DNA of 64,000 nt, taken from NCBI GenBank assembly GCA_964016885.1, contig OZ024741.1:165726001-165790000 (forward strand). The letters run 5' to 3'. The position numbers were made by a program, and so were the translations under genes. The notes below the pieces were generated by a model. The model was given only the letters and a program-made list of their open reading frames with translations. It was not told the origin of the DNA and did no database searches. This document shows, piece by piece, positions 4,427 to 64,000 of the stretch. Each line of letters opens with the position of its first letter. Position 1 is the first letter of the stretch. This DNA is from Eledone cirrhosa. Lineage: Eukaryota.

Positions 4427-4458
<32 letters not shown>

Positions 4459-5110: not shown

Positions 5111-5151
<41 letters not shown>

Positions 5152-5153
<2 letters not shown>

Positions 5154-5490
5154 GGCACATGGCTTAGTGGTTAGAGCATTGGCCTTGCAATCGAAAGGTT
5201 GTGAGTTCAATTCTCAGATCGGGTGATGTGTTGTTTCCTTGAGCAAGACACTTTATTTCACATTGCTCCAGTTTACTCAGCTGTAGAAATGAGATGATAG
5301 GGACTGGGTTCCCTATCATTCCACTGCAAAGTGGACGTGGAGGTGCCACGGCAAAAAAGCACCCAGCACTCACTGTAAATGAGGTTGGTGTTAGGAAGGG
5401 CATCCAGCTGTAGAAATCAAGCCAGAATCAGTTCCTGTCCCACCCTTGCAAGCAGGGAAAAGCGGACGTAAAATGAAATGATGATGATGA

Positions 5491-5492
<2 letters not shown>
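5152..5492 (+). mobile_element. SINE family A copy
   Basis: Near-identical to 3874-4213; flanked by (TA)n on both sides. Confidence 0.9.
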
Positions 5493-5534
<42 letters not shown>

Positions 5535-5959
5535 TATATACTATATATATATAATTTCAAATGAAGAGAGTCAAGGTTTTCAAACATTTCTATACAGGTG
5601 TTAAGTTTACATAAATATGCAAACAACAAATCAATCAGAAACAGTTAACAATTATTTACACAATACATAAATACCTGTGTATCATCAGGATTATAAAAGG
5701 GGATAACCACATCTCTAGACTCTCTTATAACTCAGCTGACTTTCATCAGAGTGCTCAATATTTATTTCAATGGAGATCTGGCTATATTGACATATGAATG
5801 AATTAACATAAAAAAACTAACTCTGTTTCTTATATTTTATATGTTTTCTTCATTCAAACCTGCATTATCATGGTTTTCCAACTTCGAATTGTTGATAACA
5901 TTGTGTTTATAGCAAAAATTTTAACAATATTATCTCGCATAATATGACTACATAGACCC

Positions 5960-37099: not shown

Positions 37100-40000
37100 T
37101 ATAACTTTGTGATGGTGTTAATGTTGGTCGTGTTGATGATGTTGGTGGTGGTGTTGGTGGTGGTGGTGGTGGTGTTAGCGGTGGTGGTGGTGGTGGTGGT
37201 GGTGGTGGTGTTAGTGGTGGTGGTGGTGGTGTTGATGTCGGTGGTGGTTTTGATGTCGGTGGTGGTGGTGGTGGTGGTGTTGATGTCGGTGGTGGTGGTG
37301 GTAGTGTTGATGTCGGTGGTGATGTCGGTGGTGGTGGTGGTGGTAGTGTTGATGTCGGTGGTGATGGTGTTGATGTCGGTGGTGGTGGTGTTGATGGTGG
37401 TGGTGTTGATGTCGGTGGTGATGGTGTTGATGTCGGTGGTGGTGGTGTTGATGGTGGTGGTGTTGATGTCGGTGGTGATGGTGTTGATGTCGGTGGTGGT
37501 GATGTTGATGGTGGTGGTGTTGATGTCGGTGGTGATGGTGTTGATGTCGGTGGTGATGTCGGTGGTGGTGGTGGTGGTGGTGGTGTTTATGTCGGTGGTG
37601 GTGGTGTTGATGTCGGTGGTGGTGGTGTTGATGTCGGTGGTGGTGGTGTTGATGTTGGTGGTGGTGTTGATGTCGGTGGTGGTGGTGTTGATGTTGGTGG
37701 TGGTGTTGATGTCAGTGGTGGTGGTGTTGATGTCGGTGGTGGTGGTGTTGATGTCGGTGGTGGTGGTGTTGATGTCGGTGGTGGTGGTGTTGATGTTGGT
37801 GGTGGTGGTGTTAATGTCGGTGGTGGTGGTGTTGATGTCGGTGGTGGTGGTGTTGATGTTGGTGGTGGTGTTGATGTCGGTGGTGGTGGTGTTAATGTCG
37901 GTGGTGGTGGTGTTAATGTCGGTGGTGGTGGTGGTGTTGATGTCGGTGGTGGTGGTGTTGATGTCGGTGGTGGTGGTGTTGATGTTGGTGGTGGTGGTGT
38001 TGATGTTGGTGGTGGTGGTGTTGATGTTGGTGGTGGTGGTGTTAATGTCGGTGGTGGTGGTGTTGATGTCGGTGGTGGTGGTGTTGATGTTGGTGGTGGT
38101 GGTGTTGATGGTGGTGGTGGTGGTGTTGATGTCGGTGGTGGTGGTGTTGATGTCGGTGGTGGTGGTGTTGATGGTGGTGGTGGTGTTGATGTCGGTGGTG
38201 GTGGTGTTGATGTCGGTGGTGTTGATGTCGGTGCTGGCGGTGTTGATGTCGGTGGTGGTGGTGTTGATGTTGGTGGTGGTGGTGTTAATGTCGGTGGTGG
38301 TGGTGTTAATGTCGGTGGTGGTGGTGGTGTTGATGTCGGTGGTGGTGGTGTTGATGTCGGTGGTGGTGGTGGTGTTGATGTCGGTGGTGGTGGTGTTGAT
38401 GGTGGTGGTGTTGATGTCGGTGGTGATGGTGTTGATGTCGGTGGTGGTGATGTTGATGGTGGTGGTGTTGATGTCGGTGGTGATGGTGTTGATGTCGGTG
38501 GTGATGTCGGTGGTGGTGGTGGTGGTGGTGGTGTTTATGTCGGTGGTGGTGGTGGTGGTGGTGGTGTTGATGTTGGTGGTGGTGTTGGTGTCGGTGGTGG
38601 TGGTGTTGATGTCGGTGGTGGTGGTGTTGATGTTGGTGGTGGTGTTGATGTCGGTGGTGGTGGTGTTGATGTTGGTGGTGGTGTTGATGTCGGTGGTGGT
38701 GGTGTTGATGTTGGTGGTGGTGTTGATGTCGGTGGTGGTGGTGTTGATGTCGGTGGTGGTGGTGTTGATGTCGGTGGTGGTGGTGTTGATGTTGGTGGTG
38801 GTGGTGTTAATGTCGGTGGTGGTGGTGTTGATGTCGGTGGTGGTGGTGTTGATGTTGGTGGTGGTGTTGATGTCGGTGGTGGTGGTGTTAATGTCGGTGG
38901 TGGTGGTGTTAATGTCGGTGGTGGTGGTGTTGATGTAGGTGGTGGTGGTGTTGATGTCGGTGGTGGTGGTGTTGATGTAGGTGGTGGTGTTGATGTAGGT
39001 GGTGGTGGTGTTGATGTCGGTGGTGGTGGTGTTGATGGTGGTGGTGGTGTTGATGTCGGTGGTGGTGGTGTTGATGTCGGTGGTGTTGATGTCGGTGCTG
39101 GTGGTGTTGATGTCGGTGGTGGTGGTGTTGATGTTGGTGGTGGTGGTGTTAATGTCGGTGGTGGTGGTGTTGATGTCGGTGGTGGTGGTGTTGATGTAGG
39201 TGGTGGTGTTGATGTAGGTGGTGGTGGTGTTGATGTCGGTGGTGGTGGTGTTGATGGTGGTGGTGGTGTTGATGTCGGTGGTGGTGGTGTTGATGTAGGT
39301 GGTGGTGTTGATGTAGGTGGTGGTGGTGTTGATGTCGGTGGTGGTGGTGTTGATGGTGGTGGTGGTGTTGATGTCGGTGGTGGTGGTGTTGATGTCGGTG
39401 GTGGTGGTGTTGATGGTGGTGGTGGTGTTGATGTCGGTGGTGGTGGTGGTGTTGATGGTGGTGGTGGTGTTGATGTCGGTGGTGGTGGTGTTGATGTCGG
39501 TGGTGTTGATGTCGGTGCTGGTGGTGTTGATGTCGGTGGTGGTGGTGTTGATGTCGGTGGTGGTGGTGTTGATGTTGGTGGTGGTGGTGTTAATGTCGGT
39601 GGTGGTGGTGGTGATGCCGGTGGTGGTGATGTCGGTGGTGGTGGTGTTGATGTCGGTGGTGGTGGTGTTGATGTCGGTGGTGTTGGTGTTGATGTCGGTG
39701 GTGATGGTGTTGATGTCGGTGGTGGTGGTGTTGATGTCGGTGGTGGTGGTGGTGATGTCGGTGGTGGTGGTGTTGATGTCGGTGGTGGTGGTGTTGATGT
39801 CGGTGGTGGTGGTGTTGATGTAGGTGGTGGTGGTGTTGATGTAGGTGGTGGTGGTGTTGATGTAGGTGGTGGTGTTGATGTAGGTGGTGGTGGTGTTGAT
39901 GTCGGTGGTGGTGGTGTTGATGTTGGTGGTGGTGGTGGTGGTGTTGATGTCGGTGGTGGTGGTGTTGATGTCGGTGGTGGTGGTGTTGATGTAGGTGGTG

Positions 40001-43000
40001 GTCGTGGTGTCGATGTCGGTGGTGGTGGTGTTGATGTAGGTGGTGATGGTGTTGATGTCGGTGGTGGTGGTGTTGATGTTGGTGGTGGTGGTGGTGTTGA
40101 TGTTGGTGGTGGTGGTGGTGTTGATGTTGGTGGTGGTGGTGGTGTTGATGGTGGTGTTGGTGTTGATGTTGGTGGTGGTGTTGATGGTGGTGTTGATGTT
40201 GGTGGTGGTGGTGGTGTTGGTGGTGGTGTTGGTGTTGATGGTGGTGGTGGTGGTGGTGTTGGTGGTGGTGTTGATGTTGGTGGTGGTGTTGATGTTGGTG
40301 GTGGTGCTGGTGTTGATGTTGGTGGGGGTGGTGGTGTTGATGTTGGTGGTGGTGTTGATGGTGGTGTTGATGTTGGTGGTGGTGGTGATGGTGGTGGTGG
40401 TGTTGGTGGTGGTGTTGATGTTGGTGGTGGTGGTGATGGTGGTGGTGGTGTTGATGTTGGTGGTGGTGGCGTTGATGTTGTTGGTGGTGTTGATGGTGGT
40501 GTTGATGTTGGTGGTGGTAGTGGTGTTGATGGTGGTGGTGGTGGTGGTGTTGGTGGTGGTGGTGGTGTTGATGTTGGTGGTGGTGGTGGTGTTGATGGTG
40601 GTGGTGGTGTTGATGGTAGTGGTGGTGTTGATGGTGGTGGTGGTGTTGATGGTGGTGTTGATGTAGGTGGTGGTGGTGTTGATGTTGGTGGTGGTGGTGG
40701 TGTTGATGTTGGTGGTGGTGGTGGTGTTGATGTTGGTGGTGGTGGTGGTGTTGATGTTGGTGGTGGTGGTGTTGATGTTGGTGGTGGTGGTGGTGGTGTT
40801 GGTGGTGGTGGTGGTGTTGATGTTGGTGGTGGTGGTGTTGATGTTGGTGGTGGTGGTGTTGATGTTGGTGGTGGTGGTGGTGTTGATGTTGGTGGTGGTG
40901 GTGTTGATGTTGGTGGTGGTGGTGGTGTTGATGTTGGTGGTGGTGGTGGTGTTGATGTTGGTGGTGGTGGTGGTGGTGTTGATGGTGGTGGTGGTGGTGT
41001 TGATGGTGTTAGTGATGGGTGTTGACAATTATGATGGCTAGCTAGGTTGTTGATAGTAATATTAATGGTGGTGGTGGTAGTGGTAGTATTGCTGTTGTTG
41101 GTGGTGGTGGGTGTTGACAGTGATGGTGGTGGTGGTGGTGTGTGGGTGTTGACAGTGATGGTGGTGGTGGTGGTGTGGTGGGTGTTGACAATGATGGTGG
41201 CTAAGTTGTTGATGATGGTGGCTAGATTGTTGATAGTAATGTTGGTGGTGGTGGTGGTGGTAGTGGTGGTGGTGGTGGTGGTGGTGGTGGTGGTGGTGGT
41301 GGTGTTGGTGGTGGTGGTGGTGGTGGTGTTGCTGTTGTTGATGGTGGTGGCTAGATTGTTGATAGTAATGTTGGTGGTGGTGGTGGTGGTGGTGGTGGTG
41401 GTGGTGGTGGTGTTGCTGTTGTTGATGATGGTGGCTAGATTGTTGATAGTAATGTTGGTGGTGGTGGTGGTGGTGTTGGTGGTGGTGGTGTTGGTGGTGG
41501 TGGTGGTGGTGGTGGTGGTGGTGGTGGTGGTGTTGGTGGTGGTGGTGGTAGTGGTGGTGTTGGTGGTGGTGGTGTTGGTGGTGGTGGTGGTGGTGGTGGT
41601 GGTGGTGGTGGTGGTGTTGCTGTTGTTGATGATGGTGGCTAGATTGTTGATAGTAATGTTGGTGGTGGTGGTGGTGGTGTTGGTGGTGGTGGTGGTGGTG
41701 TTGGTGTTGGTGGTGGTGGTGGTGGTGTTGGTGGTGGTGGTGGTGTTGCTGTTGTTGATGATGGTGGCTAGATTGTTGATAGTAATGTTGGTGGTGGTGG
41801 TGGTGGTGGTGGTGGTGGTGGTGGTGTTGCTGTTGTTGATGATGGTGGCTAGATTGTTGATAGTAATGTTGGTGGTGGTGGTGGTGGTGTTGGTGGTGGT
41901 GGTGGTGGTGGTGGTGTTGGTGGTGGTGGTGGTGGTGGTGGTGGTGGTGGTGTTGGTGGTGGTGGTGGTGCTGGTGGTGGTGGTGGTGGTGTTGCTGTTG
42001 TTGATGATGGTGGCTAGATTGTTGATAGTAATGTTGGTGGTGGTGGTGGTGGTGTTGGTGGTGGTGGTGGTGGTGGTGGTGTTGGTGGTGGTGGTGGTGG
42101 TGGTGGTGGTGGTGGTGGTGTTGGTGGCGGTGGTGGTGGTGTTGCTGTTGTTGATGATGGTGGCTAGATTGTTGATAGTAATGTTGATGGTGGTGGTGGT
42201 GGTAGTGGTGGTGGTGGTAGTGGTGGTGGTGGTGGTGGTGGTGGTGTTGGTGGTGGTGGTGTTGATGTAGGTGGTGGTGGTGGTGGTGTTGGTGGTGGTG
42301 GTGGTGGTGGTGGTGGTGGTGTTGCTGTTGTTGATGATGGTGGCTAGATTGTTGATAGTAATGTTGGTGGTGGTGGTGTTGGTGATGTTGGTGGTCGTGG
42401 TGCTGGTGGTGTTGCTGTTGTTGATGATGGTGGCTAGATTGTTGATAGTAATGTTGATGGTGGTGGTGGTGGTAGTGGTGGTGGTGGTAGTGGTGGTGGT
42501 GGTGGTGGTGGTGGTGTTGCTGTTGTTGATGATGGTGGCTAGATTGTTGATAGTAATGTTGATGGTGGTGGTGGTGGTAGTGGTGGTGGTGGTAGTGGTG
42601 GTGGTGGTGGTGGTGGTGGTGTTGCTGTTGTTGATGATGGTGGCTAGATTGTTGATAGTAATGTTGGTGGTGGTGTTGGTGATGTTGGTGGTGGTGGTGG
42701 TGGTGGTGGTGTTGCTGTTGTTGATGATGGTGGCTAGATTGTTGATAGTAATGTTGGTGGTGGTGGTGGTGGTGGTGGTGGTGGTGGTAGTGGTGGTGGT
42801 GGTGGTGGTGGTGTTGGTGGTGGTGGTGGTGGTGGTGTTGGTGGTGGTGGTGTTGATGTAGGTGGTGGTGGTGGTGGTGTTGGTGGTGGTGGTGGTCGTG
42901 GTGGTGGTGGTGTTGCTGTTGTTGATGATGGTGGCTAGATTGTTGATAGTAATGTTGGTGGTGTTGGTGGTGGTGGTGTTGGTGGTGGTGGTGGTGGTGG

Positions 43001-43260
43001 TAGTGGTTGTTGACAATGATGGTGGTGGTGGTGGTAGTGGTGGTGGTGGTGGTAGTGGTGGTGGTGCTGGTAGTGGGTGTTGACAATGATGGTGGTGGTG
43101 GTGGTGGTAGTGCTGGTAGTGGGTGTTGACAATGGTGGTTGTGGTGGTGGTAGTGGGTGTTGACAATGATGGTGGTGGTGGTGGTAGTGCTGGTAGTGGT
43201 GGTAGTGGTGGTGGTGCTGGTAGTGGGTGTTGACAATGGTGGTTGTGGTGGTGGTGGTGG
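37100..43260. repeat. 6.2-kb (GGT)n/(ACC)n-derived compound satellite
   Basis: Domains with sub-units gttgatgtc(ggt)n, gttgatgtt(ggt)n, gttgctgttgttgatgatggtggctagattgttgatagtaatgtt(ggt)n and tagtgggtgttgacaatgat. Confidence 0.95.
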
Positions 43261-43587
43261 TTTAAAATTGAAAAGAAGTCAATGGGAGGTGTCTGATTTA
43301 ATCATGAATAATGAATTACAATTTCTTTTCAATATTGTATTGTCTTCTTCATATATATTGAGGGTCCTTGGTTGGTGCTTCTAGTTGGAGGGGTTGTATA
43401 TACAGGCTGAGATGTCGATAAAATGATGGGTGGGGGAGACAGAGTCAAGGAGGAAGAGATAAACAGAGAGAAAACAGGTGGTGAGAGAGAGCGAGTGTGA
43501 CATATATATATAGAGAGAGAGAGAGGGAGAGAGAGAGAGAGGGGTGAGTGGCATATATATATATATAGAGCGAGAGAGAGGGGGAGT

Positions 43588-43791: not shown

Positions 43792-44281
43792 GAGAGAGTG
43801 AGAGAGAGAAACAGAGATAAAGATTAAATAGTGAAACTGAAAGAGGGGGGGAGGGAGAGAGAGAGAGAAGTAGCCAGAGTGTGAAATATACAGACAGAGA
43901 GAGTGACAGAGAGAAACAAAGATACAGTGAAAGGTGGACATAGGAGAGAGGGGGGGGGGGGGGGGGGCAGAGTAAGAATGGGTAAAAGAATAAATGAGAA
44001 AAAAATCCAGTTAAGCTGTATTGTAATTCTTTGTCAATTTAACAGTCAGTTACCATTCTCTCATAGATTTCAAACAAGTGGACAAGTGGATTTGGTAATA
44101 GAAAAAAAAATTGATTTATCCATTGGTTTTGTTTTTGTTCCTGGTGCCAACCAATTGTCACAAAGTGGCATCAATCTTTTTTCTTTTTTGTGACAACACA
44201 TTTTAATAAAATCTCACTGAAGATTATATATCTTAAATTCTCCTCCCCTCATTCACCAACCACCATATATGCCCCATTATA

Positions 44282-44314
<33 letters not shown>

Positions 44315-44327
44315 TGATATATATATG

Positions 44328-44668
44328 GAGGCACATGGCTTAGTGGTTAGAGCATTGGCCGTGCAATCGAAAGGTTGTGAGTTCAATTCTCAGACCGGGT
44401 GATGCATTGTTTCCTTGAGCAAGACACTTTATTTCACATGGCTCCAGTTTACTCAGCTGTAGAAATGAGATGATAGGGACTGGGGTCCATATCATTCCAC
44501 TGCAAAGTGGTCGTGGAGTGCCACGGCAAAAAGCACCCAGCACTCACTGTAAATGAGGTTGGTGTTAGGAAGGGCATCCAGCTGTAGAAATCAAGCCAGA
44601 ATCAGTTCCTGTCCCACTCTTGCAAGCAGGGAAAAAGCAGACGGAAAATGAAATGAAATGATGAAATG
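44328..44668 (+). mobile_element. SINE family A copy
   Basis: Matches 5152-5492; TA flanks. Confidence 0.9.
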
Positions 44669-44859
44669 ATATATATATATACATATATACATACATTAAT
44701 AGTTTAAATAAAACCAAAGAGTTAATTCCTTAACTCTTTGGTTTTATTTAAATAGCTTTGTGTGACCCTCATTGCATTGAGCTTAAAACACCCTGTATAA
44801 TTACTCCCATTAATATTATAACTATATTATAATATTAGTACTAGTATCATATATATGAG

Positions 44860-45390
44860 ATTGCTTTGGTATGGACATGTGATGCATATGAAGGATAATA
44901 GCTGCATAAAAAGTTCAGAGCGTTCAAAGTCGATGGAAGCCTTGGAGTGGGGAGACGCAAGAAGACTTGGGATGAGGTAATAAAAGCTGATCTTGTCCAC
45001 TTGCACCTCTCAAAGGCAATGGCACAGGACTAAGATCTCTGGTGTTACGCAGTAATATAGAAGACCCAACTTCCCACAAGTACAAACCAAAGCTGAAGCA
45101 TATAGGCAGTATGCCCCCTCCCATTGTAAAGTGGTCGTGTAGGTGTCATGACAAAAATCACCCAGTCCACACTGTTAAGTGGTCGTGTAGGCGCCATGGT
45201 AAAAAAGCATCCAGTACTCACTGTAAATGAGGTTGGTATTAGGAAGGGCATCCAGCTATAGAAATCAAGCCGAAATCAGTTCTGAATGAGCAAGACATAG
45301 TTACCTGACCTGGCATTGCCCACAACAGGACAACTCGTCTAACCCATGCTAGCGTGGAAAAATGGACGTAAAACGGTGATGATGATGAAC
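44860..45390 (+). mobile_element. Decayed RTE 3' remnant
   Basis: WYGHVMHMKDNSCIK remnant, 3'UTR and (GAT)n tail. Confidence 0.85.
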
Positions 45391-46475
45391 CAATAACTCT
45401 TCATGGAGTCATAAAGGTGGTGTAGTGACATAGTTTGTCTTGGGCATTTCAAACATGGTGGAGCCCATCTCTTTCCAGGTCAGATCACAGATCATTTTGC
45501 CCATATAAGAAGAGAGTGATAAAGAGGAGGAATCCACCCCAGTACGGGCCTGGTACTTTTTTTATTGACAAAAGGATGACAGGCAACGTTGATTCCAGCA
45601 GAATTTGAACTCAGAAGAAAGAGAGCTGGAACGAATACTGCAACACATTCAATCTGATGTTATAACAACTCTACTAATTCACTGCCCTATCATACTGGAA
45701 TCATGTGGTTGTGAAATACAGCTGTGCCTGCATTTATCAGTACTGAATTTCTACAGATGATTGTGTGAACTATGACCACAGATTTGACTACAACAGACGT
45801 TTGCTATGCCAGTAAATGTTCAGTCTCTCTCTCTCTCTTTCTCAATATTAATATTCTTCAATCAAGTCTAGTATATGACAGTCCCTCTAGTATAGGAATA
45901 CCTTGTAAAGTATTAGTGTTGGCGCCATAATAAAATGCACTGCACTCAGTTCACTCTGTAAAGTGGTAGTGCTGGTGCCACAATAAAATAAACCAATTCT
46001 GTAAGGTGGTTAGCATTAGGAAATCTATCTAGCCATAGAAACTATAGTAAATATAGAATATAACAAGTAAGCTGAGTCATTGCAACCTAACTGGTCTTGG
46101 ACTATGACAACCCATTCAACCCATCTCATTGTAAAAAGTGGACATAAAATGATGATGACATGAAAAATGCTGCTCTGAAGATTATATTTTAATTCTTCAT
46201 CTTTCACCAACCATCATATATATATATATGACCTATCATTTTGTAACATTAAGTTACAGCCTCACCTCCTCCCACCCCTCTCTCCAATATTAATATTCAA
46301 TACAAAACATTTGACAAATTTATCACAAGTAATAACTAGTATAAAAGCCATTCATTGTAATAGAGGCCGCTAATAAAATATAAAATAAAATCTCATGCAG
46401 GTTCTATTCTGAGAGAGCAATCAATCATTGTTAAATGCCATAAAAACATATACACACACACACACATATATACAT

Positions 46476-46506
<31 letters not shown>

Positions 46507-47144
46507 CATATACACGCACACATATATAAATATACATACACACACACACACACATATATATACACACGCATATATATATACACACATACATGCACACATA
46601 TATATATATTCACACATACACGCACACATATATACACGTACATGCACACATATATACACACATATATACACACACACACGCACACACACATATATATATA
46701 AATATATAAAACGGTGATGATGATGATGAGGATATAAAAGCAAAAAAAAATATTTATTAGAAACCAATCAATATATTAGCATTCAATTTCCTGCAAAACT
46801 TTACAAAACCAAAACATGGATGACAGAAAAAAAGTCAAACAAAATATATGTAAAATATTTGTTTTTATGTCATATAATTATAAATTCTTATATTTTAGTT
46901 TGTTGTTTCCCCTTGGAGAAAATGATGACAAAAAAAAATGTTTAAATAGAATAAAAATGTTGATTGTCTTTTGTAGCTACATTTTTTTCCTATCATAATC
47001 CTTTATCTATATATTAGAAATTACTAACTCTACAATTAAGAATAGTGAATATAAACTTCATGCATGTTGTTTGGGAGTGGGTTATGAAATTACTAGGTTA
47101 TGATGTGGCCATTTGAATCATGGGTTAGCATATCACTCATCAAT

Positions 47145-47520
47145 TTGGCAGTATCAGTAGAGAGTCGGACGCCATGCTTTCTAGCATAGTTACGTCCCTT
47201 TACAGTCTGAGTTCAAATCCCGCCGAGGTTAACTTTGCCTTTCATCCTTACGGAGTCGATAAAATAAAGTACCAGTAATGCACTGGGTAATTGCTGGCCT
47301 TGTGCCTAAAGTAGAAACAATTATATACACTGTAACTTAATGTTTGTTAAATAGTTAACCATCTGTTTGGTAGTGAATTGGCAGAGTTGTTAGAACATCA
47401 AATAGAATGCTTCACAATGTTCATTCTGGTTCTCTATGCACTGAGTTCAAATCCCATAATGGTCAACTTTGCCTTTCATCCTTTCAAGGTTGATAAATAA
47501 AGTAACAGTTAAATAGTGGG
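47145..47520 (+). mobile_element. SINE family B copies (one young, one old)
   Basis: Family B consensus. Confidence 0.82.
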
Positions 47521-48633
47521 TAAATGCTTCCTCTTTATTCATCTGAATTTTCCCTTGCTTTTCCTTTCTCTATTTCTCTGGAAGGAATTACCTGTGTTCC
47601 AATCAGGATAGAGATAGGCTCTGCCTGGTTTAAAATACCCAAGCCATATGTAATGACAGCACCATTATGCCTCCCTCAGAAGTTAAGGGTCCATGGCATA
47701 GCAAATATTTGTTGTAGACACAGCTGTGGTCATAGTTTACACAATCATCTGTAGAAATCCAATACTGATAGATGCAGGCATAGCTTTATGGTTATAAGAT
47801 GCACTTCCCAATCACATGGTTCCAGGTTTAACCCCAAAGCACAGCACGTGGGGGTAAGTGTCATCTCTAACCTCAAGCTGATGTGCAAGTAAATCTGGTA
47901 GACAGAAGCTGTGTAGAGGAACATTGTATATATTCATTCACTTATTTATTTATGATACATCTCATTGTATTGTTATTGGGATTCTTTGCCCTACGATTAA
48001 ACCTATACTCTAAGGCAAAGAACTGTGATAATAATTGTTTCTACATTTGGCACAAGGCCAGCAATTTGAAGGGAAGGGGAAAGTTTATTAAATCGACCTG
48101 AGTGCATTACTAGTACTTTATTTTATCGACCCCGTAAGGATGAAAGGTAAAGCTAACCTTGGCAGGATTTGAACTTAGAATGTAAAGGGTCGTAACTCTA
48201 TGCTACGAAGCCTGGTATCTGATGCTTACTGATACTATCTACACTCACCTTTCTTAAATATAGAGTGCTAAGTTGAATAATGGTCATAACTAGTAACATC
48301 TTTCTCTCTCTCTCTCTCATATATATATAATGTTTATGCCGGGTTCAATTGAGGTTAATCACAGTAAGTAGGGTACTCAATACATAGCAGAGTATAAATA
48401 TTTAATATAGAAAGGGCTTCTACAGGACTAGAAGTGATTCATTCGGGAGAAATAAGTTGATCATTAAATCAGACCAAGGAAACAATGTTTTCATTGGTCG
48501 TTCCAATTGCTAATACTATCTATCGGTTGCAACTCCAGATAGAAGGAGCAACATGAAATAAAGCGTATTGTCCAATATATATATATATAAAGTTAAATAA
48601 AAGTCAAATGATTAAAATTTAGCTTCGTTTATT

Positions 48634-48688
48634 ACTGCTATATATATTTCAATGACAGCCATCTTTGGCTGTGACCTCTTCAGGCAGT
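48634..48688 (-). ncRNA. Minimal type-I hammerhead ribozyme (copy 1)
   Basis: Reverse complement of the 49974-50028 motif; one stem II G-C to G-U change. Confidence 0.8.
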
Positions 48689-49973
48689 TTGAATTAGTAT
48701 GGTATAGACAAGTACATATGTTGTTTAGGTGTATGATATTGTCAATACTCTGATATGCCCAGTTCCTTGTTGGGTTGTTAATTCACTGGGGAACTGGAGT
48801 CATATGAATTCAAACAAATGAATTTCAGTGTCACAGGTCCCCTTCTCCTCTCATTGGTCAGTTATTAGAACATTCCTCATTCTAAGTGTTGTTATTGTTG
48901 GAATTAGCTTAAAAATTGATAAAATGGTAGAAGGGACAAGGTGTTAAAGGAAGAAAATAACAAAAAAAGTGTCAAACTTCCCATTGTTCAGTTCTGAGAG
49001 CATTCCTCAGTCAGAAGTCTATAGGATTCTTTCTGGGGTGAGGCTCCCTGTAGTGTTTTTGCCTGCTATTGTTCAGTACATTTGACCTCCACCATTATTT
49101 TGGTACTGTTGTTGTTGTAGTGGTCAGCTTATATCTTGCTGCTGCTAACAATTTAGAAGTATCCAGTTTGTGTTTTTTCTTCATCCCTCCCGCCACCATC
49201 GTAGTGGTGGTGGTGGTGGTGGGGGGGGGGGGTCTTTCATGTATATGAAGAAATATAAGGCAATAAATGAAGAAAACAGAAAATAAATAAATAATATAAT
49301 AAAATAATTAATATAATTTGTGTAATTTGAAAATAAATAAATAAATAAATAGAGAATAAAGAATAAAGAGTAAATGAGAGATTGGTGAAAAAGTAATGAT
49401 AATGTATATGGAGAAGTGAGAAATAATGTAGGATAAAGTGTGTGTGTGTGTGCTATAACCAATCTCAAGGTCAGAATATGTTGGATAGATTGGTATGATA
49501 CAAGATGTTAAGATGAGATATTCAATGTGTTTGTGTTATAATCTATCTCAACTTAAAATAAATATAAAGTGATACAGTGAAGAGGGCAGAAAACATAACA
49601 AATTAATAAAGAGAAATCAAGATTTAAGATTGGAACTTGAAAGTCAGAAATCTGGTAAATTAAAAGTGTTTGTGTTATAGATGTTGGCCAAATTATTATG
49701 GCTGTGTCCGATTCTATCTCTAGGCTATCATGGTGTCTGCTCCGCCTGGTTTCTCCAACTCCAACAATAACAACACTTAGAATGAGGAATGTTCTAATAA
49801 CTGACCAATGAGAGGAGAAGGGGACCTGTGACACTAAAATTCGTTTGTTTGAATTCATATGACTCCAGTTCCCCAGTGAATTAACAACCCAACAAGGAAC
49901 TGGGCATATCAGAGTATTGACAATATCATACACCTAAACAACATATGTACTTGTCTATACCATACTAATTCAA

Positions 49974-50028
49974 ACTGCCTGAAGAGGTCACAGCCAAAGA
50001 TGGCTGTCACTGAAATATATATAGCAGT
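49974..50028 (+). ncRNA. Minimal type-I hammerhead ribozyme (copy 2)
   Basis: actgc-CTGAAGA-ggtcacagcca aaga tggctgtcact-GAAA-tatata-TA-gcagt. Confidence 0.82.
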
Positions 50029-51504
50029 AATAAACGAAGCTAAATTTTAATCATTTGACTTTTATTTAACTTTATTTTACACTATTCCGGAGTAACCAAA
50101 CCAACCTGCGCACTTCGTCGAGTGCTCCAGCCTGCATACTGAGGTGTTGGTATACAACCAACATAAACTCAAAATCTATATATATATATATATAAATTTC
50201 ATTATATATAAATATGTGTATATATCTCATGTGTGTGTGTATACACATATTTATAATTCCTTTGAGAAACCTATGAATATTAACCTCTTCTTTTTCTCTT
50301 CTCTTAAAATTGGAGATTTTGTGTCAACAAATTTGACCTTAGACAATATTTGTGGACAGGAATGTTCTCCAACATGTCCTGTTGCTTGTCACACTTCAGC
50401 AATGACCATTAAGCTTTTCATTACTGTAATTCTAATGAAATACAGTGTCAATGTGTTTTATTTAATTTCTAAAATAATCAAATATTTTCACTAGAAAGCT
50501 GATATTTAGAACATTACTTCACAACTGTCTCCAACTGATCCGTAACCAGCCAAGGACATGAGCTTAGCTGGTCATGGATCAATTGGAGACAGTGGAAAGA
50601 GTGTTTGAGGACTTTGTCCCAACGACCCTCGCAGGAATAAGTGGGCAAAGAAGAAGAATTTCACAAACATTTCTTAAAATAATGATGAAAAGTTTTATAA
50701 AGATAAATATTTTAAAGTGATTAGTTTTATATCATAAATCCAGGGTAATTTTAGGCAGTTTAATGTCAAAAGAACAATTATGTCTAGAGCAAGCAGGGAA
50801 CCAACATTCGGTGCTACCACGACACCAGTATTTAATCCCACACATACAAACACAAACATACATTCACATGCATAAGCATATACATAAAAACACTCATCCA
50901 CAAACAAACATACCTACACAAACACACACACACACACACAAACATAGAAACAGATTCATTCATATACATATCAAACAAAAGCCAACCCTACTTGTAGTTA
51001 ATTAATAAAACTGTTACCATTGGTGTTTAATTAATAGTTAATTGAAATATTTAATGAATTCAATATACATTTAAAAGAAATAAAAATTAATAATTGGAAA
51101 TATTATCATAAAGAGAAGTTGAAATATTACTAGATGTTAAACATATATAAATTACATATATAGAACATACATATATATATACATATTTTGTTCTTTTACT
51201 GGTTTCAATAATTGGATAGCAGTCATGCTGTGGTAACAACTTCAAGAAATTTAGTCCATCATAACAGACACAAACAGCGTTTTTATTGTTTTCTCAAGTT
51301 TGATGATCATTTTGTTGAACTGCTAAGCTATGGGACATAAACAGTAAATGTAAACACGGACATGAAAACACACACACACACACAGCAATAATAATTAAAG
51401 AGACCAAAATATTTATTCTGCGTCTACTGATTGATTTTTCTCTGTTTTAGAAGATCCCGTAAAAGGATGAAAGCAGCGATTATTTGCTTAAACTTTAATC
51501 TGTA

Positions 51505-51920
51505 CTAATAATTGTTTCTACTTTTGGCACAAGGCCAGCAATTACCCAGTGCATTACTGGTTCTTTATTTTATCGACCCCCGTAAGGATGAAAGGCAAAG
51601 TTAACCTCGGCGGGATTTGAACTCAGAATGGCAAGGGCCGTAACTCTATGCGTCAAAGCATGTCGACCAACCCTCTACCGATACTGCCAATCCACCACCC
51701 TCTGTACTAATAATGATTTCTACTATAGGCACAAGGCCAGAAATTTGGGGGAGGGAAAAATCAGTTAAATCGACCCCAGTGCATTACTGGTGCTTTATTT
51801 TATCGACCCTGTAATGATGAAAAGCAAAGTTAAACTCAGAAAGATTTTATGTCAAAACGTAAAGGGCCGCAACTCTGTGCTGTGAAGCATGGTGCCCGAC
51901 GCACTACCAATACTGCCATA
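51505..51920 (-). mobile_element. Two SINE family B copies (short and long form)
   Basis: Family B consensus; tctgtactaataat duplication around the first copy. Confidence 0.87.
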
Positions 51921-52212
51921 ATATATATATCTACACACACAACAGACTTCCACACAGTTTCTGTTGCCAAATTTCATTCACAAGGCATGTACCAGCCTTA
52001 GGCTATAGTACAAGACACTTGCCCAAGGTGCCATGCAGTGGAACTGAACCCGAAATCACATGATTGCAAAGCAAACACATTTCACACACACACACAATAG
52101 GTATGTATATGTATGTATGTATTCATAAAATTCGTTGTAAAAGGATGAGGGTGTTATGTTTGCATGTGTGTGTATGTGTCAGTTTATTGTGAATGTCTTC
52201 ATATCAATAACA

Positions 52213-52440
52213 TTTAACTCTTTAGCATTTAAACCAGTCATATCCAGCCAGAATTCTCTCACTTCTTTCTGGTCAAACTGGCTATAACAGGCCACTCAAA
52301 ATTATGTTATGGTATTGTTCTCAAAATATATATCAAAATCTCATAGATTCGATATTATGTGAAATAATTATGTAAGTTAAAGCCTTTACTGTGAAAATAT
52401 AATAGTAAATTTAGAGTAATATAAATGCTAAAGGGTTAAA
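52213..52440. mobile_element. piggyBac-type MITE copy
   Basis: TTAA|ctctttagcatt...aatgctaaaggg|TTAA. Confidence 0.82.
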
Positions 52441-52609
52441 GCAGCCAGTAACACTTGTTTATGTCCTGCATAAACAACATCTTTCATTTGGTGGTGGTGA
52501 TGATGAGGATATGTAAGGCTGAGTGAAAAACATACTAACTAAATAAAACAGCATCAAAATATATACATAAAAATTAGGTCAATAATGTTTTTTTTGCATT
52601 ATATTATAG

Positions 52610-53027
52610 TTGGTGAATTGGCAGTATTGGTAGAGAGTCAGACATGCTTTCCAGCATAGTTACGCCCTCTTTACAATCTGAGTTCAAATCCCGCCTAGGT
52701 TAACTTTGCCTTTCATCCTTACGGGGTCGATAAAATAAAGTACCAGTAATGTACTGGGTAATTTGCTGGCTTTGTGCCAAAAGTAGAAACAATTATATTA
52801 TAGTCCAACAGGTGGATTGGCAGTATTGGTAGAGGGTCTGACGCCATGCTTTGCAACAAAGAGTTACGGCCCTTTATAGTCTGAGTTTAACTTTGGTTAA
52901 CTTTGCCTTTCATCCTCACGGGGTCGATAAAATAAAGTACCAGTCACACACTGGGGTCGATTTAATTGACTCCCCCCCCCCCAAAAAAAAAAATTGCTGG
53001 CCTTGTGCCTATATAAGAAAAAATTAT
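52610..53027 (+). mobile_element. Two tandem SINE family B copies
   Basis: Each is followed by attatattatagtccaac. Confidence 0.87.
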
Positions 53028-54242
53028 ATTATAGTCCAACCCAGAGGAACAGAGGATGTAAAATAATGATAATTACCATATATACTTGAATATATGCCAA
53101 GGAATAATGTGACCAAAAAAAAAATCGATGGTAAAATGAGGGGGGTAGCTTATATTCGGGGTCAATATTTTGACAATTTTCCCTAACTTTAAATTCTACC
53201 TAAATAAGATGCTGAAATATCTGGAGTGATTATTTTACAATGAAACACTGTTTTTTTTCTACATTTACTATATCATGTGTGTTTTATTTATGTATTGCAT
53301 AGAGAACATTCCCAAGAAATTTTTATTTCAACTTTTTATTACATAAATATCCTCTACACATATACACATACACACATACACACACGTACTTGTGTGCTGA
53401 CTGTTTTTCTCTGTAACTTAATTATATTTTTTCATTCAATCTTGTTTTGTTTTATTCCACTTTCCCTATCTTTTTCTTGCTCTGCTTCTCCTCCCTCTCT
53501 CTCTCTCTTACTGTCTATTCCTCCCCCTTCTATTCTCAATCCTTATACTGCATTCTATTGGTTGATCTCTTTCAACTATTCTCTATTCATTTCGATCTCC
53601 CCCTGGTGGTTTTAATGATCTCCATAATGGTTAAAAAAATCTTTTTTTTAAATAATACCTTAAACTAAAAATATATCTCCATTTCTTTATATTATATTAA
53701 TTTACAATTTTCTCATGCTTTTTATTTCCTCATTACAAAGAAATAATTTTTTTTTTTTTAATGTGGGAGGAGGTTGTCTTATTTTCACATGGGGCTTTTG
53801 TCCGTAGTGAATTTGTGAAACAAAAACTATACTCTAAACGACACTTAAAACATTTTAAATATCAAAATATTAAAACTTATACCAATCCACCTGGACTAAA
53901 GTATGACTGAACTTAGATTCTTTGAGAAAGAACATAGCTGCTTATTTCATATGCTACAAATAGCCACAATATCTAAAACCTTTAAAATTAGTAAAAAATT
54001 CTTGAAATTCAAAGAAATAACGACTGCACAATAGATTAGGGAAATTTCCTTTTCATCACAACCTTACAGCCGGGAAATTGGCTGATCCTAAATGAAATCA
54101 AAATTAAGAAAAAGAGACAATATGGACTTATATATATACATACATACATACAAACATGCACACATGCATACACTGTATTACTGGTAAAAATATATATGGA
54201 TTTTCCATTTTCTGCTGATCTATGTATGAATTATTATCATCA

Positions 54243-54930
54243 GCACAGTTACATCCCTTTACGGACTGAGCTCAAATCCCGCCGAGGTTAACTTTGCCTT
54301 TCATCCTGACGGGGTCGATAAAATAAAGTACCAGTAATACCCTGGGATAATTGCTGGCCTTGTGCCAAAAGTAGAAACAATTATTAACTGGAGTGACAGA
54401 CTTGTTAGAATGTCGGACACCCTGCTTCGCGACAGAGAGTTACAGCCCCTTATGTTCCGAGTTCAAATCCCACCAAGGTTTAGTTAACCTTTCATCGTTA
54501 CGGGGTCGACTAAATTAAGTACCAGTACCATACTGGGGTCGATTTAATCAAATTTCCACTGCCCCAAAATTGCTGGCCTTGTGCCTATAGTAAAAATCAT
54601 TATTATGGCAGTGTCGGTAGAGGGTCGGACGCCATGCTTTGAATTACCTTGCCATTCTGAGTTCAAATCACGCCAAGGTTAACTTTGCCTTTCATCCTTA
54701 CGGGGTCGATAAAATAAAGTACCAGTAATGTACTGGGTAATTGCTGGCCTTGTGCCAAAAGTAGAAACAATTATTAACAATCAATGACAGGAGATTAACA
54801 GAAACATTACAGTGTCGGGCTAAATAGCTTACAACATTTGTTTGAGCTCTTTATATTTTGTGTTCAAATACCTCCAAGGTCAACTTTGTCTTTCATCCTT
54901 TTGAGGTCAATAAAATAAAGGACCAGCAAA
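54243..54930 (+). mobile_element. Cluster of 3-4 SINE family B copies
   Basis: Head-to-tail family B units. Confidence 0.86.
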
Positions 54931-57206
54931 GAAACTAATATTAACGTCAAGAAATGGAAGACATTTCATAATATCGTGGATCCTCTGTCACTTTCAACAA
55001 TGAACATTCAGTTTTTTGCTCAACCAAATATCTAGTTCATGAATTAGCATTTAATTGGTTGAGTATTCCATAGATAGATGCGTACATAACATCATTTTTA
55101 AGTTGAATCATTGTGACAATATGTACGAAGGCTGGAACATTGAATTACAGGTACAATCAACTGATAGGCTTCTACACAGTTGCTGTTTACCCAATCTCAC
55201 AAACAAACCTTGGGTTGACACAAAGCTATGGTAAAGACACTTACCCCCAATGCCATGCAATGAGATTGAACCTCTTTATCTTTATCCAACACTAGGTAGG
55301 CCTATGGCCTGTCAGTCCAGAAGTTCCTCCAGAACGAGATCTTCTCTTTGTTTTTTGTTAGCAAATTTATTTTCCATTGCCGGCTTGCAAGGCCTGTTGC
55401 GAATAATGCTACCAATGTTGTCCAAGGGAAAGGCAAAGGCTGATACAATTAGACACTAATGTATCACCCAGTCTAGGAATCAAACTCACAACTTCACAAT
55501 TGAGAATCACACTATCTAATCCCTAAGCCATGTGCCCTTACAACCCAAGGACTAATGATTACAAAGCAAAACTTCTTAACCATCCCACACTTCACAATAT
55601 GTGGTAAACTTGATGGTAAAGTAATAAAAGAGATAACATATCAAACTACCAACATCAGCTGTAGGTATTTCATTGGAGTGGTGGTGGTGGTGGTGGTGGT
55701 GGTGGAGTGTCTCTGAGTTGAATATTTAGTTCTATATGCTTTAGTTACCAAACACAGGTAGCATAGAAATATTACTTGTAATATAGCCTGCTGTAATACC
55801 CAATGAAATATAACACTCCCTCAATTTATTAATGCCATAAAATAGAAGAACACACATACAGATATATATATATATATATCATCTAACCTCTCTGTTAACA
55901 AGGGTTGGATGGGTTGTCAGAGATCAAATCAGTATTCGAGTGGAGCTACTGACCACTCAGATGAACCGGGAGCCTGCAACTCATGGTCCCGGGTTCTAAC
56001 AAATGCATTTCATCATGGCACCAACACTAAGGAGATTGCCAAGTCTCTTACACAGCTTAAGCAACCTCCTAATCCTTTGTTTGGGAGGTGTTCTACAGCT
56101 GGACGCCCTGCTTATCACCAATAACTTTATAGGGTGTACTGGGTGCATTTATCACATAGATTACCAACACTAGGGAGATTGTCATATATCTTTGAGATGG
56201 TTAAAGGGCAATCCCAACTCTTTGTGTGGCAGGTTTTCTACAAGCGGAATGCCCTTCCTATCATATATATATTAAAAGATGTATGCTAATAGGCTACATA
56301 GATTTATTTAAAGACAACCTAAGTAAACTGAAAGCTAAATGAACTTTTGAGACATCAGGTTCAAACTATTGTTATATCATGATTTAACGTCAGTTTTCCC
56401 AGTTACACTATCAAATAAATCATTGGAAGATGATAAAGTCTCTTAAAGGGATTTTATAGTACACAAATCTTATGTGAAATCAAAGATCAAGCTAAAGTTC
56501 TCATATATGTGCATATGTGTGTTTATTAAAATCCCCTAAGTGACAGAGTAAGATGGAGACATATTTCCTTTCAACCAAGACATTATCATATTATCAATTA
56601 GACATTCTATATGGACACCATTCTATCAGTAGTTTAAGCTCACACAGAAGATTACACTGCTGCGTAGATGAGATGTCAGACAGGAAAGGTTTGTAAATGA
56701 AGAGATTAAGAATAAAAGAAAGATATAGATTAGGTAGATCAATTTGTTAGTGAACACATCAAAGTCTTCATTAGAATCAATAAGATGTTGAAAAATGATA
56801 CGTATACTGGAGATAAATCTGATAATATATTATCTGACTGAATAAGAGGAGGCACATGACAGTAACTGATGTATGTATATGTTGCTTAGATGTTCAAAAT
56901 AGTGACATATAATATTTTACTTGGAAAATGGGACGACTATCATCTCTTAGAGGTCAATACTTTATTACCAATTTTAAATGAGAAACTTGAAACATTAGTG
57001 TTTGATTTTATAACATATGTACACTTGAAACTAGCCTCTCATTTCAAAGTGAACATTAGAGAGGTTAAGTAATCATAGATGATGAAAACACACTCATTAC
57101 ATTTACTTTTCAACAAACACAAAGTTTCATTGAAAATTACTGATGTATTACATTGAGAAAGTCAGAATGTTAGGTGGAACAATATAAATATATATATATA
57201 TATATA

Positions 57207-60051: not shown

Positions 60052-63000
60052 CTCTACATCAACCATGTCATCGATGTAAGCTTGTCTCTAGATCAACCAT
60101 GTCATTGATGTAACCTTGTCTCTAGATCAACCATGTCATTGATGTAAGCTTGTCTCTAGATCAACCATGTCATTGATGTAAGCTTGTCTCTAGAGCAACC
60201 ATGTCATTGATGTAAGCTTGTCTCTAGATCAACCATGTCATAGATGTAAGTTTGTCTCTAGATCAACCATGTCATTGATGTAAGCTTGTCTCTAGATCAA
60301 CCATGTCATAGTTGTAAGTTTGTCTCTAGATCAACCATGTCATTGATGTAACCTTGTCTCTAGATCAAGCATGTCATAGATGTGAGCTTGTCTCTAGATC
60401 AACCATGTCATTGATGTAAGCTTGTCTCTAGATCAACCATGTCATTGATGTAAGCTTGTCTCTAGATCAACCATGTCATAGATGTGAGCTTGTCTCTAGA
60501 TCAACCATGTCATAGATGTAAGTTTGTCTCTAGATCAACCATGTCATTGATGTAAGCTTGTCTCTAGATCAACCATGTCATAGATGTGAGCTTGTCTCTA
60601 GATCAACCATGTCATTGATGTATGCTTGTCTCTAGATCAACCATGTCATTGATGTAAGCTTGTCTCTAGATCAACCATGTCATTGATGTAAGCTTGTCTC
60701 TAGATCAACCATGTCATTGATGTAAGCTTGTCTCTAGATCAACCATGTCATTGATGTAAGCTTGTCTCTAGATCAAGCATGTCATTGATGTAAGCTTGTC
60801 TCTAGATCAACCATGTCATTGATGTAAGCTTGTCTCTAGATCAACCATGTCATTGATGTAAACTTGTCTCTAGATCAACCATGTCATAGATGTAACCTTG
60901 TCTCTAGATCAACCATGTCATTGATGTAAGCTTGTCTCTAGATCAACCATGTCATTGATGTAAGCTTGTCTCTAGATCAACCATGTCATTGATGTAAGTT
61001 TGTCTCTAGATCAACCATGTCATCGATGTAAGTTTGTCTCTAGATCAACCATGTCATTGATGTAAGCTTGTCTCTAGATCAACCATGTCATTGATGTAAG
61101 CTTGTCTCTAGATCAACCATGTCATTGATGTAAGTTTGTCTCTAGATCAACCATGTCATTGATGTAACCTTGTCTCTAGATCAACCATGTCATAGATGTA
61201 AGTTTGTCTCTAGATCAAGCATGTCATTGATGTAAGCTTGTCTCTAGATCAAGCATGTCATAGATGTGAGCTTGTCTCTAGATCAACCATGTCATTGATG
61301 TAAGTTTATCTCTAGATCAACCATGTCATTGATGTGAGCTTGTCTCTAGATCAACCATGTCATTGATGTAAGCTTGTCTCTAGATCAACCATGTCATTGA
61401 TGTAAGTTTGTCTCTAGATCAACCATGTCATCGATGTAAGTTTGTATCTAGATCAAGCATGTCATTGATGTAAGCTTGTCTCTAGATCAAGCATGTCATA
61501 GATGTGAGCTTGTCTCTAGATCAACCATGTCATTGATGTAAGTTTATCTCTAGATCAACCATGTCATTGATGTGAGCTTGTCTCTAGATCAGCCATGTCA
61601 TTGATGTAAGCTTGTCTCTAGATCAACCATGTCATTGATGTAAGTTTGTCTCTAGATCAACCATGTCATCAATGTAAGTTTGTCTCTAGATCAAGCATGT
61701 CATTGATGTAAGCTTGTCTCTAGATCAACCATGTCATTGATGTAAGTTTGTCTCTAGATCAACCATGTCATAGATGTAAGTTTGTCTCTAGATCAAGCAT
61801 GTCATTGATGTAAGTTTGTCTCTAGATCAACCATGTCATAGATGTAAGTTTGTCTCTAGATCAACCATGTCATTGATGTAAGCTTGTCTCTAGATCAACC
61901 ATGTCATTGATGTAAGCTTGTCTCTAGATCAACCATGTCATTGATGTAAGCTTGTCTCTAGATCAACCATGTCATAGATGTAAGCTTGTCTCTAGATCAA
62001 GCATGTCATAGATGTAAGTTTGTCTCTAGATCAACCATGTCATTGATGTAAGCTTGTCTCTAGATCAACCATGTCATTGATGTAAGCTTGTCTCTAGATC
62101 AACCATGTCATTGATGTAAGCTTGTCTCTAGATCAACCATGTCATAGATGTAAGCTTGTCTCTAGATCAAGCATGTCATTGATGTAAGTTTGTCTCTAGA
62201 TCAACCATGTCATTGATGTAAGCTTGTCTCTAGATCAACCATGTCATTGATGTAAGCTTGTCTCTAGATCAACCATGTCATAGATGTAAGCTTGTCTCTA
62301 GATCAAGCATGTCATTGATGTAAGTTTGTCTCTAGATCAACCATGTCATTGATGTAAGCTTGTCTCTAGATCAACCATGTCATTGATGTAAGCTTGTCTC
62401 TAGATCAACCCTGTCATTGATGTAAGCTTGTCTCTAGATCAACCATGTCATAGATGTAAGCTTGTCTCTAGATCAAGCATGTCATTGATGTAAGCTTGTC
62501 TCTAGATCAACCATGTCATAGATGTGAGTTTGTCTCTAGATCAACCATGTCATAGATGTAAGCTTGTCTCTAGATCAAGCATGTCATTGATGTAAGCTTG
62601 TCTCTAGATCAACCATGTCATTGATGTAAGCTTGTCTCTAGATCAACCATGTCATAGATGTAAGCTTGTCTCTAGATCAAGCATGTCATTGATGTAAGCT
62701 TGTCTCTAGATCAACCATGTCATTGATGTAAGCTTGTCTCTAGATCAACCATGTCATTGATGTAAGCTTGTCTCTAGATCAAGCATGTCATTGATGTAAG
62801 CTTGTCTCTAGATCAACCATGTCATTGATGTAAGCTTGTCTCTAGATCAACCATGTCATTGATGTAAGCTTGTCTCTAGATCAACCATGTCATTGATGTA
62901 AGTTTGTCTCTAGATCAACCATGTCATTGATGTAAGCTTGTCTCTAGATCAACCATGTCATTGATGTAAGCTTGTCTCTAGATCAACCATGTCATTGATG

Positions 63001-64000
63001 TAAGCTTGTCTCTAGATCAACCATGTCATTGATGTAAGCTTGTCTCTAGATCAACCATGTCATTGATGTAAGCTTGTCTCTAGATCAACCATGTCATTGA
63101 TGTAAGTTTGTCTCTAGATCAACCATGTCATTGATGTAAGCTTGTCTCTAGATCAACCATGTCATTGATGTAAGCTTGTCTCTAGATCAACCATGTCATT
63201 GATGTAAGCTTGTCTCTAGATCAACCATGTCATTGATGTAAGCTTGTCTCTAGATCAACCATGTCATTGATATAAGTTTGTCTCTAGATCAACCATGTCA
63301 TTGATGTAAGCTTGTCTCTAGATCAACCATGTCATTGATGTAACCTTGTCTCTAGATCAACCATGTCATTGATGTAAGCTTGTCTCTAGATCAACCATGT
63401 CATTGATGTAAGCTTGTCTCTAGATCAACCATGTCATTGATGTAAGCTTGTCTCTAGATCAACCATGTCATTGATGTAAGTTTATCTCTAGATCAACCAT
63501 GTCATTGATGTAAGCTTGTCTCTAGATCAACCATGTCATTGATGTAAGCTTGTCTCTAGATCAACCATGTCATAGATGTAAGTTTGTCTCTAGATCAACC
63601 ATGTCATTGATGTAAGTTTATCTCTAGATCAACCATGTCATTGATGTAAGTTTGTCTCTAGATCAACCATGTCATTGATGTAAGCTTGTCTCTAGATCAA
63701 CCATGTCATAGATGTAAGTTTATCTCTAGATCAACCATGTCATTGATGTAAGCTTGTCTCTAGATCAACCATGTCATTGATGTAAGCTTGTCTCTAGATC
63801 AACCATGTCATAGATGTAAGCTTGTCTCTAGATCAACCATGTCATTGATGTAAGTTTATCTCTAGATCAACCATGTCATTAATGTAAGCTTGTCTCTAGA
63901 TCAACCATGTCATTGATGTAAGCTTGTCTCTAGATCAACCATGTCATAGATGTAAGTTTGTCTCTAGATCAACCATGTCATTGATGTAAGTTTGTCTCTA
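60052..64000. repeat. 34-bp tandem satellite, ~116 copies, running past the window end
   Basis: Unit tagatcaaccatgtcattgatgtaagcttgtctc with a few recurrent variant positions; degenerate units at ~59695-59927. Confidence 0.97.

Follow-up and report, generated by a model that had tools for sequence, protein, structure and literature searches.

Penelope-like retrotransposons of the Hydra clade have been described by Craig et al. (2021; PMC8557442). The sections of that paper cited here define the clade's motifs (RWK, DKT, CxCx5C, CxxC, and CxH) and already describe inverted 5'-truncated copies, tails, (TA)n targeting, and hammerhead ribozyme motifs. Its supplement records a 5'-truncated inverted copy of Penelope-13_HM with hammerheads on both strands, as well as one Hydra family from octopus with a hammerhead unlike the one reported below. 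The same sections place a transcription start inside the Penelope pseudo-LTR, citing Schostak 2008. Dual minimal hammerheads on opposite strands, 100-700 bp apart, are described in the cited parts of Cervera and De la Pena (2014; PMC4209133), along with low, dimer-only activity of the minimal hammerheads of Penelope-like elements (PLEs) and a tentative circular-RNA model. The cited parts of Frangieh et al. (2024; PMC11167929), on the Poseidon element PAc of Anolis, describe a tail bounded by two internal reverse transcriptase (RT) start sites and extension on both strands, with uncut RNA serving as the main in vitro substrate. Sections of Cervera and De la Pena (2020; PMC7229834) characterize non-LTR retrozymes as non-coding elements made of 150-450 bp repeats that lie in tandem on one strand and bear canonical hammerheads. 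What PLE hammerheads do, and how inverted and tandem pseudo-LTRs arise, are treated as open questions in passages of PMC8557442 and PMC11167929. A search of titles and abstract openings in the open literature found no report of in vivo cleavage by Penelope-like hammerheads or of twin priming with inverted copies, and the main text of PMC13282606, in the portion consulted, mentions neither Hydra nor hammerheads.

Here we analyze a unit with two hammerhead motifs in a 64,000-nucleotide stretch of the Eledone cirrhosa genome, referred to as the window. With a probability of roughly 90%, the unit represents a single insertion, truncated and inverted at its 5' end, of a young autonomous Penelope-like retrotransposon of the Hydra clade into (TA)n, with a hammerhead in each arm and a likely origin from two cDNAs primed from both target strands on one uncut RNA. 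The element represents a new family of a known clade, and the window copy is a dead fragment in a published arrangement. The family is separated from Hydra-1_Obim because the hammerhead and the N-terminal protein sequence differ on comparison by eye; it may already carry a name outside the open literature covered here.

Architecture of the Unit

The unit is organized around an inverted repeat (48587-48905 and 49757-50075) with arms of 319 nt that are 99% complementary and 851 nt apart. The arms differ at 4 of 319 bases (49759, 49836, 49843, and 50010), in keeping with the young repeat of ~315 bp with few differences of the original prediction, and (TA)n tracts lie on either side of the unit, as had been claimed. 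The expected distance of ~850 bp between the arms was also correct, but there is no separate spacer: the sequence is 3' UTR of the element itself, reversed and joined to the left arm without a break. In other copies it adjoins the arm on the same strand, and upstream of it the sequence leads into a coding region. The unit in the window thus consists of 3' UTR plus pseudo-LTR in reverse complement, placed head-to-head with pseudo-LTR plus a 100-nt tail, between (TA)n (Table 1). Over 1179 columns the inverted arm is 97% identical to a natural copy (L031), and it begins ~140 nt past the ORF stop. A pseudo-LTR from a partial tandem, an inverted 5'-truncated copy, and a tail at one end are all present in the family; the inverted 5' copy was correctly recognized as a Penelope arrangement.

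A diverged 130-bp duplication lies within the element's 3' UTR (48849-48882 and 48979-49012 in the window); older copies seem to lack it, because their alignments break ~245 nt upstream of the cut. Dispersed SINE-like repeats surround the unit in both orientations (47145-47526, 48023-48241, 51500-51918, and 52598-52986), and some of them also interrupt copies of the element family elsewhere. A degraded remnant of another Hydra-type element is found at 6344-7213 (tblastn to P0026 residues 640-878, 30% identity, E = 1e-22) and is interrupted by a SINE-like repeat. The window further contains a 6.1-kb (TGG)n-type array (37125-43261; 75% matches, strong GC skew) and a 34-bp satellite (60052-64000; 116 copies, 95% matches) that runs off the window end.

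Table 1. Features of the unit in the window and location of the copy with an intact ORF
Feature	Position	Strand	Remarks
(TA)n target tract	48574..48586	.	Adjoins short (B) 3' end of inverted arm
Inverted 5'-truncated arm	48587..49752	-	~850 nt of 3' UTR (48906-49752) and pseudo-LTR region; ends at B site (equivalent to 50075)
Minimal type-I hammerhead motif, copy 1	48634..48688	-	Predicted cut after 48639
Head-to-head junction of two 5'-truncated arms	49753..49756	.	~4 bases outside either arm
Direct 5'-truncated arm	49757..50176	+	Pseudo-LTR region and 100-nt tail; ends at A site
5'-end pile-up site of family copies	49852..49859	+	Mode 49857, TC[A]TATG; likely transcription start (inferred)
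Minimal type-I hammerhead motif, copy 2	49974..50028	+	Predicted cut after 50023
Parts of hammerhead copy 2			Stem I 49974-78/50024-28; CUGAAGA 49979-85; stem II 49986-50011; GAAA 50012-15; (UA)n palindrome
B site, short 3' end of family copies	50075..50079	+	Likely second RT start site; inverted-arm ends
Tail	50080..50176	+	5' UTR sequence; full-length copies continue into ORF start; its end is the A site
(TA)n target tract	50177..50194	.	Adjoins A end
Copy L169	G000:C2:291935904-291944903		Intact 892-aa ORF at 4015-6693

The Hammerhead Motif

A type-I hammerhead descriptor matched the 64-kb window exactly twice, once on the + strand (CUGA at 49979, GAAA at 50012, H17 at 50023) and once on the - strand (CUGA at 48683, GAAA at 48650, H17 at 48639). 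Thirty dinucleotide shuffles produced one loose match and none at equal stringency. The type-I core CUGANGA/GAAA/UH is present with three stems: stem I is ACTGC/GCAGT, stem II has 11 positions with one C.C mismatch and an AAGA loop, and stem III is the palindrome UAUAUAUA, stable only between two molecules. The descriptor search and the reading of the stems together confirmed a complete type-I hammerhead in each arm, on opposite strands, and upheld its description as a minimal Penelope-type motif with palindromic stem III on the sense strand of a pseudo-LTR. Rfam detected no hammerhead family at E ≤ 1 in window positions 44000-55000. The stability of the monomer fold was unremarkable (z = -1.5 to -2.0). 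The dimer hammerhead fold was calculated at -37.2 kcal/mol versus 2 × -12.3 for the monomers, and an alternative non-hammerhead dimer fold scored better (-42.8). From its palindromic stem III, the hammerhead is predicted to act as a dimer.

The single difference between the arms inside the ribozyme, a change from G-C to G-U in the left arm, keeps the pairing as originally claimed but is no evidence of selection, because the allele is rare (T at that site in 1/134 sampled arms). Within the family, the evidence that the hammerhead is better conserved than its flanks was borderline (p = 0.05-0.14), and no two-sided compensatory changes were seen. Private mutations were flat at ~1.1% in the core, stems I and II, and the flanks, and stood at 0.4% in inner stem III. 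Contigs from 4 of the 6 listed sequencing runs yielded nothing beyond lists of variants.

The Full-length Element and Its Protein

A first look through the genome with the right arm and its 3' extension gave 1,660 candidates, the best 40 of which were 99-100% identical, and the family is young, as had been proposed. Exact genome matches numbered 2,754 for a 31-mer from the tail and 57 for the ORF start. The full unit is 4,141 bp long and contains an RT-endonuclease ORF, into which the arm and spacer sequence runs in other copies at 95-98% identity. ORF integrity was examined in 47 of the 57 exact ORF-start matches: one copy (L169, Table 1) has an intact ORF of 892 aa, and the other 46 are broken or partial. 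The window copy does lack an RT of its own, as predicted, but the further proposal of a non-coding, retrozyme-like family had to be abandoned in view of this ORF. The upstream repeat of L169 begins only ~90 nt past the hammerhead cut, and that copy therefore lacks the putative promoter site described below. Large internal deletions fuse the pseudo-LTR to the ORF region in six further copies (L155, L167, L170, L187, L189, and L112), which suggests frequent template jumps.

The protein was modeled from P0001, a natural 856-aa frame of a near-identical copy. The top six PDB matches of the predicted model were TERT structures (best E = 7e-10), and by this predicted fold the RT of the single ORF is closest to telomerase. 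Pfam assigned no family to P0001, and PDB sequence searches gave no relevant match. The Hydra-type motifs are present as RWK37, DKT120, CxCx5C752 (CNCRNPESC752), CxxC850 (CKLC850), and CxH878 (CRH878). The YIG, R, E, and N motifs of the putative endonuclease align with 11 relatives, and no cysteine pair was found by eye within the GIY-YIG core. Pfam GIY-YIG matches were weak (2 of 12 aligned members, best E = 0.002; none in P0001). From motifs and homology, the assignment of a C-terminal GIY-YIG endonuclease appears weak but consistent. A degenerate GIY-YIG domain in the arms was considered and rejected; six-frame translation revealed no ORF there, and the true ORF terminates ~1.26 kb upstream of the cut. 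Residues ~444-593 and 656-713 of P0001 are long, low-complexity, low-confidence inserts between the RT thumb and the endonuclease and are short or missing in relatives. An Octopus bimaculoides protein annotated as PH-domain-containing (P0025) matches 19% of the element ORF (E = 4.5e-20), and this gene model possibly includes transposon sequence.

Copy Ends across the Genome

The ends of family copies were read in 90 loci covering the first 91 listed tail matches on contig C1; because these are exact 31-mer matches from the first 120 Mb of one contig, the sample favors young copies. Three loci had no tail arm, leaving 87, and one mis-picked arm (L112) was left out of the 5'-end counts, leaving 86. 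Overall, the analysis covered ~200 loci and 9 junction positions.

Two fixed 3' ends were observed. Nearly all tail arms (85/87) end within 50173-50176, the A site, and (TA)≥4 lies within 40 nt of 78 of these 85 ends. An inverted partner arm is present in 54/87 loci, and 45 of the 54 end at the B site, at 50079 (41) or 50075 (4). The 5' ends accumulate at 49852-49859, where 24/86 tail arms (~1.3 expected) and 17/54 inverted arms begin; the commonest insertion is a ~540-bp hairpin running from 49857 to the A and B ends. An RNA start at ~49857 from a pseudo-LTR promoter is likely from this pile-up, and the modal base, the A of TCATATG, is one that we take to resemble an initiator. The predicted cleavage site is crossed by 78/86 tail arms, and uncut RNA is therefore the usual template. 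The stop at 49857 depends on arm length: first-pass arms stopped there in 24 cases and passed in 26, whereas arms longer than one unit stopped in none and passed in 20 (0/42 stopping in all; Fisher p = 5e-5). From these long arms, a circular or multimeric RNA is the likely template of the full-length copies.

A Probable Single RNA Template for Both Arms

In 98 inverted pairs, the two arms differed by 1.4% versus 3.5% in random pairs. Lineage-diagnostic alleles agreed in 246 cases and differed in 29 (45 versus 319 in random pairs), and 32 private alleles were common to both arms (0.4 in random pairs). Both arms of an insertion are thus likely to derive from one RNA, although variants shared between arms could also stem from gene conversion or from copying of the first cDNA. 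Among 29 direct repeats, 16 private alleles were shared (0.2 expected), with no recurring difference between the upstream and downstream repeats.

Of the 16 differences in one insertion (L139; G000:C2:330904121-330907155), 15 are A>G changes on the sense strand, and these 15 all lie upstream of the hammerhead cut. They affect 15/59 As upstream of the cut versus 0/50 downstream and include core A14 and the cleavage-site base. Eleven of the 15 fall in the overlap of the arms, and all 11 are present in both. An A-to-I-edited RNA was likely copied twice here and the changes fixed in DNA, in what is a single insertion. Rare variants as a whole were not enriched in A>G (1.94 versus 1.73 per 1000 for T>C), and the editing-like pattern is confined to this insertion: among 12 fetched loci (16 matches), two belonged to it, and the other ten were older or ordinary copies.

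Junctions at the Predicted Cut and Alternative Explanations

A genome-wide search for copies beginning at 50024 gave 18 matches, which reduce to 12 insertions once four point variants and one ambiguous match are removed and two matches from one insertion are counted together. Nine of these have a partner arm whose end likewise falls within 5 nt of 50024. Control positions starting with G or C yielded 2, 2, 2, 4, 3, and 4 junctions once variants, same-locus repeats, and same-insertion arms were removed, the junctions being classified from 10 upstream bases; those starting with TAAA yielded 13 (50031) and 11 (49935). Copy starts at the cleavage site had seemed sharply enriched (5-fold), but the 50031 control lessened the force of this result, and the 49935 control indicates that TAAA-starting sites run high anywhere. 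The excess is 3.6-fold over the G/C-start controls (p = 0.001), a class separated from the TAAA-start controls after the 50031 result was known, but just 2.0-fold over all controls (p = 0.04), and it is therefore suggestive only. Hairpin junctions were found near 50024 in 14 loci, 6 of which have both arms at 50024/25 and no TA left; for the control positions 49977 and 50035, there were 2 and 8 loci nearby, respectively, with no exact coincidence.

These copy ends are suggestive of cleavage by the hammerhead in vivo, at about even odds. The same element could instead carry a hammerhead that is never used in vivo, in which case starts at 50024 would be ordinary truncations and the 49857 pile-up an RT stop or the mark of a short master copy. 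Such an account is plausible, at somewhat less than an even chance. It draws on the wide variation of junction counts between positions, with TAAA-start counts as high as the 12 at 50024 itself, on the modest excess over pooled controls, and on a further cluster of hairpin junctions at 50028-50033 (8 loci); TCATATGA at 49855-62 is a palindrome favoring fold-back, and the cited parts of PMC11167929 report no RNA-seq ends at the Anolis cleavage site. Both high controls, however, have a microhomology-prone start, whereas the G/C-start controls are low and the partner arms at 50024 tend to end at the same place; ends at 49857 are likewise seen in arms that lack an inverted partner, and older copies of 85-90% identity show them too. 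A fuller scheme, in which twin priming at two internal sites copies a transcript from 49857 on both target strands, the hammerhead cuts in vivo (~1% of insertions begin at the cut), and full-length copies come from ribozyme-made circular RNA, is tentative and rather doubtful as a whole. Under it, full-length copies would ignore the 49857 stop and carry identical repeats because the circular RNA is copied more than once round.

Two other explanations bear on the nature of the unit itself. A non-autonomous, non-coding retrozyme, making small circular RNAs through its hammerheads and borrowing an RT, would agree with the fact that most copies are short and non-coding and that the ~540-bp hairpin prevails, copies that could be transcribed and remobilized in trans. 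The sequence nevertheless belongs to a coding element, of which it forms 3' UTR, pseudo-LTR, and tail and which has an intact ORF and 57 exact ORF-start matches. The genome-wide search with the arm, proposed earlier as a means of finding either tandem copies or copies next to a PLE RT, recovered the latter but hardly any short same-strand tandems: same-strand hammerheads lie <1 kb apart in 1/90 loci (736 bp), against opposite-strand pairs in 37. The family thus departs from retrozymes in two defining properties, being neither non-coding nor arranged in same-strand tandem repeats, and this origin is very improbable. Near-perfect inverted repeats are prone to conversion and misassembly, and the inverted repeat could have arisen by DNA rearrangement after insertion or by an assembly error rather than by retrotransposition. 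However, this architecture is found again in 54/87 independent loci, with both 3' ends unchanged and the junctions different, and the window arms, which are not identical (4 differing bases), terminate at two distinct fixed sites, so that this origin is the least probable of all those considered.

Discussion

Retrotransposition of a Hydra-clade element, the preferred reading, would proceed as follows. An RNA starting at ~49857 would be transcribed from the pseudo-LTR promoter, and the endonuclease would nick a (TA)n target. RT would initiate at a pair of internal sites separated by 100 nt, as it does in vitro for the Anolis Poseidon element in the cited parts of PMC11167929. Two cDNAs, copied from a single uncut RNA with one primed on each target strand, would be joined at their truncation points. 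The hammerhead, as a dimer, is predicted to cut only a small share of template RNAs, and full-length copies would be made from circular or multimeric RNA.

The window unit itself is an ordinary truncated, inverted Penelope-like insertion with the usual hammerheads, and opposite-strand hammerhead pairs, inverted 5' copies, tails, and (TA)n targeting have all been published already. What the family adds is its copy ends, which likely record the RNA start and, more tentatively, occasional ribozyme cutting. Very young, abundant, and with an intact ORF, it should be useful as a tool, and it yields base-precise predictions: an RNA start at 49857, a cut at 50023/50024, and RT starts at 50079 and 50176. 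If the twin-priming and circle reading is true, thousands of young copies constitute a genomic record of the Penelope cycle.

Relative to non-LTR retrozymes, as described in the sections of PMC7229834 cited here, the present unit resembles the metazoan examples in having a type-I hammerhead in a high-copy, low-GC repeat but differs in being an inverted fragment of a coding element. It shares with the metazoan PLE hammerheads of the cited parts of PMC4209133 a short helix I, a long helix II, and a palindromic helix III predicting dimer activity, as well as location in pseudo-LTRs and dual opposite-strand motifs in truncated copies. Those parts give no in vivo evidence, whereas in the present family a small set of copies begins at the predicted cut. 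Like PAc, as far as the cited parts of PMC11167929 describe it, the element has two fixed 3' ends separated by a tail, AT-rich targets, both-strand extension, and uncut RNA as the main template. It belongs to another clade, however; its hammerhead lies ~215 nt upstream of the ATG, whereas that of PAc overlaps the ATG, and its start sites, unlike those of PAc, lie within the 5' UTR, each with a short TA-like match to the target.

The closest relationship is to the Hydra clade. As in the clade generally, with Hydra-1_Obim and Penelope-13_HM as examples, a single ORF encodes an RT and a putative C-terminal endonuclease with the same five motifs, the targets are (TA)n, and a sense-strand type-I hammerhead with palindromic stem III lies near the 3' end. 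The inverted 5'-truncated copy with a hammerhead on each strand is likewise found in Penelope-13_HM. The unit of 4.14 kb exceeds the "generally <3 kb" given for the clade, a typical rather than strict size, because of its long 3' UTR (~1.3 kb) and the inserts in its ORF: with long low-complexity inserts, the ORF reaches 892 aa versus 619-806 aa in the aligned relatives. The tail is 100 nt long rather than the 30-40 nt of the Hydra clade, and compared with the hammerheads of that clade, stem II is longer and stem III is pure (UA)n.
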